Source of the DNA: Naegleria gruberi
Lineage: Eukaryota
NCBI GenBank assembly: GCA_000004985.1
Contig: GG739421.1
Length of the DNA stretch: 1,446 nt
Strand: one strand, 5' to 3'
A program made the translations under genes and the position numbers. The stretch's first letter is position 1. Each line of letters begins with the position of its first letter. A model generated the notes under the pieces. It had not been told where the DNA came from. It searched no databases and saw only the letters and a list, made by a program, of their open reading frames with translations. Of this stretch, positions 1-1,446 are shown piece by piece.

Positions 1-26
1 TAATATATTTTAATAAATACTAATAT

Positions 27-32
27 TTTATT
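27..32 (-). promoter_or_regulatory. Candidate polyadenylation signal AATAAA (plus strand tttatt) 27-32 nt downstream of the TGA stop.
   Basis: Hexamer present at the expected distance 3' of the stop. In DNA this AT-rich, AATAAA occurs by chance quite often, so this is weak evidence. Confidence 0.25.
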
Positions 33-58
33 ATTATTTAATTAAACAATTTATGAAA

Positions 59-1078
59 TCATTTTAAATAATCAATTAAATTTAAAATAATTAAATTTTG
101 ATTATTTAAAGAAATTAAAATTTCATTTTTAGAAAATTGAATAAAATCATTAATATAATAATTTAAATCTAATTTAAATTTTAAAGTTCCATCAATATTC
201 CAAATAAAAATAAAATGATTACAAATTCCAATAATAAATTGATTAATAAATTTAATATTTTGACATTTACTTGAAATTATAATTTTAATTGGTTTACTTA
301 AATTATGAATTGAAAATAAAGTTAAATAATTAATTTCTCTACTTGAATGAATTAACCAATTATTATATTCATCTGTTGATATACTATTTATAGTAATATT
401 ATTTTCTAAAAATGGAAAATATTCATTTTCAATTATTAAATCTAAATTTAAAATTTTAATTTTATATAAACATGTAATAAATAATTTAGAATTAATTAAA
501 TTTATATTTAAAATACTTGAATCTAATTTAATTGATTTTAATAAATTTAAATCTTGATCTACCATATATAGAAATCCATTATCAAATCCAATATATAAAT
601 TATTATTAATAAAATTAATACAATTAATTATTTTTCCATTATTAATTTCATCCATATATAAATTTGGTGATAAAATTATTGATTTTTCTATATTTGTTAA
701 TAAATCTTCAATTTTAAATATTTTAATAAAATTACTTGTACAAATATAGATTGTATCTAAATTATTAATTATATTTAAAATTGGAAATGTATCTATTTTT
801 ATACTTGTTATTAATTCTAATTTTAAATTATAAATTTTAACTTGTCCAAAATCATTTCCAATTAAAATATATTCCATATTATTATTATTACTAGATATGG
901 TAGTATTATTATTAGTATCATTGGTATCATTATCATTAATTATTGTAGATATTGGTATATTCTTAATTTTTATCATACAAGTTGCTCTGATAGGTCTTTT
1001 TAATTCATCTTTTTGTATTTGATAAATTTCTTCTCTTGATGGATGAGAAAATTCTTGATTAAAAATTAGGCTTGTCAT
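59..1078 (-). CDS. Hypothetical Asn/Ile-rich protein, 339 aa; beta-propeller (WD40-like) repeat architecture suspected; intronless eukaryote-style gene. Coordinates include the TGA stop at 59-61.
   Basis: Single uninterrupted 340-codon frame (ATG at 1076-1078 as rev-comp cat; TGA at 59-61) in DNA where TAA/TAG/TGA should occur by chance about every 9-10 codons, so an open frame this long is essentially impossible without selection. It starts at the first ATG after an in-frame TAA 17 codons upstream. Codon usage is consistently AT-biased (AAT Asn, AAA Lys, AGA Arg, GGA Gly, CAA Gln, TGG Trp). The protein has repeated 'hydrophobic strand + G-x-D/N-G turn' units, for example GNDFGQVKIYNL (824-859), LYIGFDNGFLYMVD (557-598) and IWNIDGTLKFKL (170-205), about 7 units in all. 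No homology search was possible, so the fold and function assignment is inference. Confidence 0.8.
   Translation of the reverse strand: MTSLIFNQEFSHPSREEIYQIQKDELKRPIRATCMIKIKNIPISTIINDNDTNDTNNNTTISSNNNNMEYILIGNDFGQVKIYNLKLELITSIKIDTFPILNIINNLDTIYICTSNFIKIFKIEDLLTNIEKSIILSPNLYMDEINNGKIINCINFINNNLYIGFDNGFLYMVDQDLNLLKSIKLDSSILNINLINSKLFITCLYKIKILNLDLIIENEYFPFLENNITINSISTDEYNNWLIHSSREINYLTLFSIHNLSKPIKIIISSKCQNIKFINQFIIGICNHFIFIWNIDGTLKFKLDLNYYINDFIQFSKNEILISLNNQNLIILNLIDYLK
878..937 (-). repeat. In-frame low-complexity tract encoding NDNDTNDTNNNTTISSNNNN (residues 48-67). It includes a 9-bp tandem unit (plus strand AGTATCATT / GGTATCATT / ATCATT, 914-937) encoding (N-D-T)x2.7.
   Basis: Direct reading of the codons gives runs of AAT (Asn), ACT/ACC (Thr) and GAT (Asp). 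The plus-strand sequence agtatcatt-ggtatcatt-atcatt is a tandem 9-mer. Such tracts are typical of AT-rich eukaryotes (Dictyostelium, Plasmodium). Confidence 0.7.
1061..1075. repeat. Direct repeat copy A: AAAAATTAGGCTTGT (plus strand). It overlaps the start of the CDS (gene strand ATG-ACAAGCCTAATTTTT, codons T-S-L-I-F).
   Basis: 15-nt match (14/15 identities) with 1225-1239. The shared core TAGGCTTGT contains 4 G/C in a background of roughly 10% G+C, so a chance recurrence is unlikely. Confidence 0.6.
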
Positions 1079-1097
1079 ATCTTGAAGTATAAAGTTA

Positions 1098-1115
1098 ATG
1101 ATGATGGTGATGATA
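1098..1115. repeat. Imperfect trinucleotide tract ATG-ATG-ATG-GTG-ATG-ATA, i.e. (GAT)2-GGT-(GAT)2 in the other phase.
   Basis: Seen directly in the sequence. It reads (ATC/ACC)n on the gene strand. Confidence 0.5.
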
Positions 1116-1139
1116 TATTGATGTATTTAATGATCACTA

Positions 1140-1166
1140 GGTGGTGGTGATATTGATGATGAAAAT
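1140..1166. repeat. Imperfect trinucleotide tract (GGT)3-GAT-ATT-(GAT)2-GAA-AAT.
   Basis: Seen directly in the sequence. It is related to the tract at 1098-1115 and to TGATGATGAC at 1189-1198. The three tracts are in different phases and interrupted by stops, so they are not a continuous coding region. Confidence 0.5.
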
Positions 1167-1175
1167 ATTTTAGGC

Positions 1176-1211
1176 TTTTCCGAAGGCTTGATGATGACAA
1201 CTATCGGAAGA
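1176..1211. other. Candidate hairpin: stem TTCCGA (1178-1183) / TCGGAA (1204-1209), 6 bp perfect with 4 G:C. It extends to 8 bp with one G-U wobble (1177 pairing with 1210) and a T-A pair (1176 with 1211). Loop about 20 nt (1184-1203) containing AGGCTTGATGATGACAACTA.
   Basis: Inverted repeat read directly from the sequence. A GC-containing 6-mer inverted repeat is uncommon in DNA this AT-rich, but one such hit in 1.4 kb is not strongly significant. Confidence 0.25.
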
Positions 1212-1224
1212 TTTTAACAAGAGA

Positions 1225-1239
1225 AAAAACTAGGCTTGT
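1225..1239. repeat. Direct repeat copy B: AAAAACTAGGCTTGT (plus strand), 164 bp upstream (gene sense) of copy A.
   Basis: See copy A. On the gene strand it reads GCACAAGCCTAGTTTTTT. There is no ATG in front of it and stops follow in all frames, so it is non-coding. Confidence 0.6.
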
Positions 1240-1446
1240 GCTAATATTTTTTTTTGAAATTTGAAAAATAGAGAAATCATAACAATCATGTGATAAGATA
1301 TTGCCAATTTAATATGTTACTATAATAGATTTAGTATTTATTTTAGAATAATCGAAATGGATATTTATTTTTATTATTTACATTAAATATACCTTCAAGT
1401 ATTTACAAATATTGAATAATATGTTCAATAATTTCATTTGGAAGTA

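Follow-up and report, generated by a model that had tools for sequence, protein, structure and literature searches.

The sequence immediately 5' of a WD40 gene in the stretch of Naegleria gruberi DNA analyzed here (1,446 nt in full, the window; 16.5% G+C overall) forms a G+C-rich island in which one hexamer, AAGCCT, recurs in a single orientation, and we regard it as moderately likely that this island represents the core promoter and 5' leader of the gene, with the AAGCCT cluster as candidate factor sites. The gene lies on the minus strand, and therefore the region 5' of its ATG is found at higher window coordinates; the sense strand below is always that of this gene. The features to be looked for in a promoter and leader, i.e., a position 5' of a genuine start codon, an over-represented motif, and a sense strand free of upstream AUGs, were each found. 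The first-pass annotation of this DNA had offered three interpretations of the island: a compact promoter or enhancer module, the relic of a former exon carrying (GAT/GGT)n tracts, and a structured RNA element in the 5'UTR. The first of these is favored, based on the homology-backed start codon that adjoins the island, the clustering of AAGCCT, the copy of this word (copy D) that runs against the codon bias of the gene, and the 201 nt of sense strand without an ATG.

The island is real and statistically solid. Its G+C content had been estimated by eye at about 30%; counting gave 49 G or C among the 151 nt of 1090-1240 (32.5%), against 14.5% in the coding sequence (CDS; binomial p = 2e-8 at the CDS rate) and 15.0% in the other non-coding DNA of the window (1-58 plus 1251-1446). 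The precise computation, which had been named as a check able to overturn the claim, thus sustains the enrichment over the CDS. The richest 151-nt segment of the whole sequence starts at 1091 (33.1%), a value reached in none of 20,000 permutations. Two-boundary likelihood segmentation placed the island at 974-1241, with 30.6% G+C inside and 13.3% outside (log-likelihood gain 20.8). Of the two edges originally proposed, 1090 and 1240, the upstream one agrees with the segmentation and the gene-side one does not, as the enrichment runs about 105 nt into the CDS; save for this boundary, the island had been rightly located. It comprises a non-coding part (1079-1241, minus strand, ~31-32% G+C), which we read as the promoter-proximal region and 5' leader, and a coding part (974-1078, minus strand, codons 1-35, 27.6% G+C). 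Exons of AT-rich eukaryotes typically contain 24-27% G+C. The description of the island as the inverse of the usual exon/intergenic pattern holds at this locus, and the unusually AT-rich CDS (GC3 3.8%) supplies part of the contrast.

The G and C residues are unevenly distributed between the strands. Within 1090-1240 the sense strand carries 37 C and 12 G (37 G and 12 C on the plus strand), and this 3:1 excess of C over G is the opposite of the slight G excess on the sense strand of the CDS. The compositional effect extends to silent sites near the 5' end of the CDS: all six synonymous G/C-ending codons fall in codons 3-110, five of them in codons 3-60, and third positions with G or C, Met and Trp included, number 8/70 in the first 70 codons vs. 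5/269 after them (Fisher p = 0.0012). The G/C of the island stems from four copies of AAGCCT and from short ATC/ACC tracts. These (ATC/ACC)n tracts of the sense strand, (GAT/GGT)n on the plus strand, are located at 1099-1165 (minus strand); they are short and mutually out of phase, and the triplet runs in the island reach only 13-16 nt. No tandem array was detected in 1079-1250 by TRF at a minimum score of 30, and a microsatellite or tandem repeat was rejected on the grounds that such triplet runs, with no head-to-tail array, are all that is present.

The WD40 gene is the sole convincing gene within the window. It is a complete single-exon gene on the minus strand (59-1078, 339 aa), with its ATG at 1078-1076 and a TGA stop at 61-59. 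G+C at first and second codon positions amounts to 19.4 and 20.3%, respectively, and codon usage is extreme: Asn is encoded by AAT in 52 of 52 cases, Asp by GAT in 19 of 19, Phe by TTT in 20 of 20, Tyr by TAT in 14 of 14, and Leu by TTA in 37 of 39, while no codon for Asn, Asp, Phe, Tyr, Cys, His, Gln, or Glu ends in G or C. The CDS equals the non-coding flanks in AT content, which is unusual among AT-rich eukaryotes, and Ile, Asn, Leu, Lys, Phe, and Tyr together account for 64% of the residues. A ciliate code and a code with TGA as Trp were set aside, as CAA is used for all nine Gln codons and TGG for both Trp codons, TAA and TAG are absent in frame, and the ORF is closed by TGA. In 1-58, 3' of the stop codon on the minus strand, AATAAA is found about 29 nt from the window end, a possible polyadenylation signal of a kind common in 5% GC sequence.

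Residues 1-35 of the encoded protein (…HPSREEIYQIQKDELKRPIRATC) align to the N-termini of the full-length homologs P0005 and P0007, the latter from Naegleria fowleri, and the Met at 1078 has its counterpart in the Met of P0005. In the same frame upstream of 1078, a TAA at 1129-1127 is reached without any ATG. Based on the N-terminal alignment of the homologs and the absence of an in-frame upstream ATG, the gene is complete in one exon, and whatever lies above 1078 is truly 5' to it.

The AlphaFold model of the 339-aa protein is a WD40-type seven-bladed beta-propeller (pLDDT 77.7). Its best natural match in the PDB is chain F of the human THO-UAP56 complex 7apk (E 1.5e-12, TM 0.65), which we take to be THOC6; THOC6 may tentatively serve as a name for the modeled protein, tentatively because many WD40 proteins score nearly equally. 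Relatives in sequence databases are few. A word-indexed search of 5.8 billion proteins with the single protein gave no match, the same kind of search with a profile gave P0001 as the only match, and an exact look-up with the 339-aa protein returned no record. In a full HMMER scan, which covered 1.84 billion representatives, two families came up at 1e-19 to 1e-21, together with one weak repeat match; the families are a metagenomic eukaryotic protein (P0001/P0005, E 6e-21) and a N. fowleri hypothetical protein (P0002/P0006/P0007, E 8e-19). The propeller family is thus very sparsely sampled, with N. fowleri and one metagenomic eukaryote among 1.84 billion representatives. At both homologous loci, L001 of the metagenomic eukaryote (1458-3895) and L002 of N. 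fowleri (3517-6496), the propeller gene is followed by a second, larger WD40 gene of canonical type (470 or 522 aa) in convergent orientation, which suggests that gene order is conserved between them. The protein also contains a low-complexity Asn/Thr/Asp/Ser insertion (…NDNDTNDTNNNTTISSNNNN…; 877-955, minus strand, residues ~42-66) that is missing from the aligned homologs and has a pLDDT below 50. Inside it, at 877-944, a period-3 array was called by TRF, and the insertion is probably a lineage-specific triplet-repeat expansion in a propeller loop.

AAGCCT in gene sense (AGGCTT on the plus strand) is present in four copies, starting at 1068, 1172, 1184, and 1232, all on one strand and found nowhere else in the window. 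From distal to proximal on the minus strand, they are copy A (1232-1237, gene sense ACAAGCCTAGTTTTT), copy B (1184-1189, CATCAAGCCTTCGG), copy C (1172-1177, GAAAAGCCTAAAAT), and copy D (1068-1073), and their consensus is (A/C)AAGCCT(A/T). One copy is therefore about 155 nt 5' of the ATG, two others, spaced 12 nt apart, precede the ATG by 94-111 nt, and the fourth falls on codons 2-4 of the gene (ACA AGC CTA). Shuffles of the whole window predict 0.06 copies. Local dinucleotide shuffles of 1060-1250 produced four AAGCCT copies in 0 of 5000 cases, and any hexamer with at least three G/C appeared four times in 1 of 5000. The shared orientation of the four sites counts for less, as chance alone would produce it in 1 case out of 8.

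Copy D is the most informative of the four. Its AGC is the only one among the 24 Ser codons of the gene, and its CTA is one of two among the 39 Leu codons. The gene's two rarest choices thus adjoin each other and spell the upstream word, which argues that AAGCCT is maintained as nucleotide sequence. Copies A and D are each embedded in a 15-mer, ACAAGCCTA(A/G)TTTTT, at 1239-1225 and 1075-1061 (codons 2-6), with 14/15 positions identical. The flanks of the motif copies share TCATCATCAA, with p values from 0.0055 to 0.16 (0.0055 for A vs. C, 0.07 for A vs. D); the resemblance is marginal, and these shared flanks are compatible with small local duplications and not with a decayed exon. No described promoter element matching AAGCCT/AGGCTT was found in the literature searched, and CAAGCCT is absent upstream of the propeller gene in the distant homologous loci L001 and L002. 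These two loci, with about 38% GC or for other reasons not comparable, belong to genomes of ~35-40% GC, and the intergenic regions 5' of their propeller genes are short, lie between tandem genes, and do not contain the motif.

Under scanning initiation, eukaryotic 5' leaders are depleted of upstream AUGs and poor in G. The sense strand 5' of the gene resembles such leaders in its 12 G vs. 37 C and in the absence of ATG from the 201 nt before the start codon (1079-1279, minus strand), in which the opposite strand contains 10 ATG. The chance of zero ATG in 201 nt is 0.0026 with the plus-strand composition and 0.15 with the actual, G-poor sense composition, so that the absence of ATG is by itself a weak, unremarkable observation, and the signal is the G depletion itself. 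G depletion would be the expected product of selection against upstream AUGs in an A/T-rich leader. Leaders of AT-rich protists are usually described as A-rich, and the candidate leader here differs from them in being C-enriched and in carrying a repeated motif.

The nearest sense-strand ATGs above the start codon are at 1280 and 1289. From either of them a mini-ORF of 16 or 19 codons, respectively, can be read (1230-1289, minus strand, MIVMISLFFKFQKKILAQA), and its TAG stop lies inside the distal AAGCCTAG motif copy (copy A); it would count as a uORF only with a transcription start upstream of 1280. Farther out, in 1379-1446, the minus strand has an open reading …YFQMKLLNILFNICKYLK with GTATAT after it, which may be a splice donor or else simply read through to a TAA, and the plus strand has an ATG at 1421 (MFNNFIWK…). 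These edge readings, which at no more than 22 codons in 15% GC are not significant, might mark where a neighboring gene ends or begins.

Based on these observations, the following mechanism can be proposed. In a near-pure A+T genome, the promoter-proximal region and the leader of the gene would stay richer in G+C under sequence constraint. The four AAGCCT copies would be candidate binding sites of one sequence-specific factor, acting at the level of the DNA or at the mRNA 5' end, and together with the ATC/ACC tracts they would give the sense strand its abundance of C, its scarcity of G, and its lack of upstream AUGs, as would fit a translated leader. We infer from the sequence that the transcript includes the region as its leader, that a factor binds through the motif, and that the expression of the WD40 gene is controlled in this way. 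Depending on where transcription starts, the island could also lie wholly upstream of the transcription start or wholly inside the leader. Homotypic clusters of binding sites in compact promoters are familiar from Dictyostelium, where GBF acts through G-box/CA-rich elements. The AAGCCT cluster resembles those clusters in that short G/C words stand in an A+T background, are repeated within ~170 bp, and lie near the start codon; it differs from them in that AAGCCT does not fit the G-box pattern, all copies have one orientation, and one copy is inside the CDS. It is conceivable, if unlikely, that the copies constitute a new cis-element, either an RNA-level cluster over the leader and start codon that is recognized by an RNA-binding protein in translation or mRNA stability, or an orientation-dependent core-promoter element that reaches past the ATG.

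A neutral origin of the island has the most to be said for it among the alternatives, although we still consider it unlikely. According to this explanation the island is not made of selected sites and arose incidentally from a regional process centered on the 5' end of the gene. Gene conversion biased toward GC, at a recombination hotspot associated with the promoter, could be such a process, as could a weaker AT bias of mutation in open chromatin or a nucleosome positioned by the sequence itself. The segmentation speaks for this in that the enrichment (974-1241) crosses the start codon, and the synonymous sites follow the island as described above; the GC3 gradient of the first 110 codons could reflect a neutral regional process rather than site selection, but it rests on small numbers, 13 GC3 sites in total. 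The size of the island, 163-268 nt, is about that of one nucleosome, and in Plasmodium falciparum local increases in GC are reported to accompany positioned nucleosomes at TSS and ATG landmarks (PMC4797266), a background that suits the promoter reading as well. The locus resembles that landscape in combining an AT-extreme genome with a nucleosome-sized G+C shift at the 5' end of a transcription unit that spans the ATG. It differs in that the shift in P. falciparum is a modest averaged trend in a genome whose exons are GC-richer than intergenic DNA (PMC4797266), whereas here a single locus, known from its sequence, has an upstream region with twice the GC of the CDS. What a neutral process fails to predict is the recurrence of one hexamer four times in the same orientation, and likewise a sense strand with three times as many C as G, a bias that reverses that of the CDS. 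Neutral enrichment and a cluster of sites may also coexist at this locus.

G+C-rich islands in AT-rich genomes are the classic signature of RNA genes. Accordingly, we considered that at the island a small non-coding RNA gene in its own right, for a snoRNA or for an RNA of some lineage-specific class, might adjoin the WD40 gene, or that a transcript runs there divergently or in antisense; we find this very unlikely. The island, 100-200 nt long and 32% GC in a 15% background, does resemble the G+C-rich snoRNA, tRNA, and snRNA genes of such genomes, and the C-box pattern RUGAUGA is matched in so far as the plus strand carries six TGATGA words (1099, 1108, 1154, 1157, 1189, and 1192, the last two outside the tract part at 1099-1165). 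Sub-threshold Rfam matches to C/D snoRNAs are also obtained over 1100-1246 on the plus strand. However, no Rfam match on the island passes its threshold: those found are all of the C/D-box type, with 12-19 bits vs. gathering scores of 39-70 and E values of 2.3-8.7, the best reaching 19.1 bits vs. a gathering score of 45. The D box CTGA is absent from both strands of 1079-1446, and a tRNA search found none. A box C/D snoRNA was therefore rejected, the C box being accompanied by neither a D box nor a terminal stem and the Rfam scores lying below gathering.

Folding speaks in the same direction. The sense strand folds at -15.2 kcal/mol (z -1.25, 17 of 200 shuffles fold as well) and the antisense strand at -30.4 kcal/mol (z -0.84, 43 of 200). 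The island thus differs from known RNA genes in having no D box, terminal stem, stable fold, or Rfam or tRNA match, and positive support for an RNA gene is lacking. The structured RNA element in the 5'UTR that the first-pass annotation had entertained was given up for the same z scores, the Rfam results being sub-threshold C/D-box noise. An inverted repeat of 6-8 bp, TTCCGA/TCGGAA at 1179-1209, was given no weight because the region folds no better than shuffles on both strands. Exact searches with a 38-mer and a 22-mer of the island gave a single hit, 22 nt (TTTTCCGAAGGCTTGATGATGA) at 142-163 of L003, a bacterial MAG of Candidatus Angelobacter; its flanks are GC-rich and unrelated, and it was dismissed as a chance match. 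Among viral, metagenome, and prokaryote contigs, no related locus was found, by protein patterns or by island DNA.

Decayed coding sequence is more doubtful still. The island would in that case be a former exon of Asp/Gly tracts (plus strand) or His/Ser/Ile tracts (minus strand), or a degenerate tandem duplicate of the 5' end of the gene, and the GAT/GGT triplet runs, the 15-mer shared with codons 2-6, and the TCATCATCAA flanks of the motif copies can be cited for it, as can a G+C content near typical exon values of AT-rich eukaryotes, e.g., 23.5% in P. falciparum (PMC4797266). The first-pass annotation had itself judged the region non-coding, and rightly so: none of the six frames is free of stops, and the longest ORF (1075-1200, minus strand) spans 41 codons, with a TTG start and no ATG. 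Period-3 power in the island is 0.02-0.57, vs. a shuffle mean of ~0.7-0.8 and 13.7-20.1 in the CDS, and no sub-segment is periodic. The best local alignment between the island and the first 300 nt of the CDS is the 15-mer alone, which is matched or beaten by 111 of 500 shuffles. Since the homologs moreover need no additional N-terminal exon, the Met of P0005 aligning where the gene begins, and there is no tandem array, the exon relic with (GAT/GGT)n tracts was abandoned, positive support for it being lacking.

Several further classes of element were rejected outright. A G-quadruplex is not indicated, the G4Hunter-type maximum being 0.64 at 1138 (threshold ~1.2-1.5) with no GGG run. The island is not a CpG island, which requires at least 50% G+C, a CpG observed/expected ratio of at least 0.6, and at least 200 bp: its GC is 31-32%, and two CpG were observed vs. 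3.2 expected. Bacterial-type promoters and terminators were counted at shuffle expectation, and such a scan is irrelevant to a eukaryotic gene.

The core promoter and 5' leader reading, which we prefer, does not make the 32% upstream block a new kind of object, and neither is such a block the default for genomes of this type, as follows from the trends described in P. falciparum (PMC4797266) and in Dictyostelium discoideum, in which the 500-bp regions 5' of genes contain, on average, less GC than the genome as a whole (PMC6511855). In near-pure A+T genomes, retained G/C is a cheap marker of constraint, and this locus shows that a compositional island combined with a violation of codon bias can point to a candidate regulatory word without comparative data. 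On the present evidence, the finding amounts to one unannotated promoter/leader with a candidate cis-motif, which helps annotation and is fairly ordinary. If AAGCCT recurs upstream of other genes, it would offer a way into the control of transcription or translation in a lineage for whose proteins the public databases contain almost no relatives.
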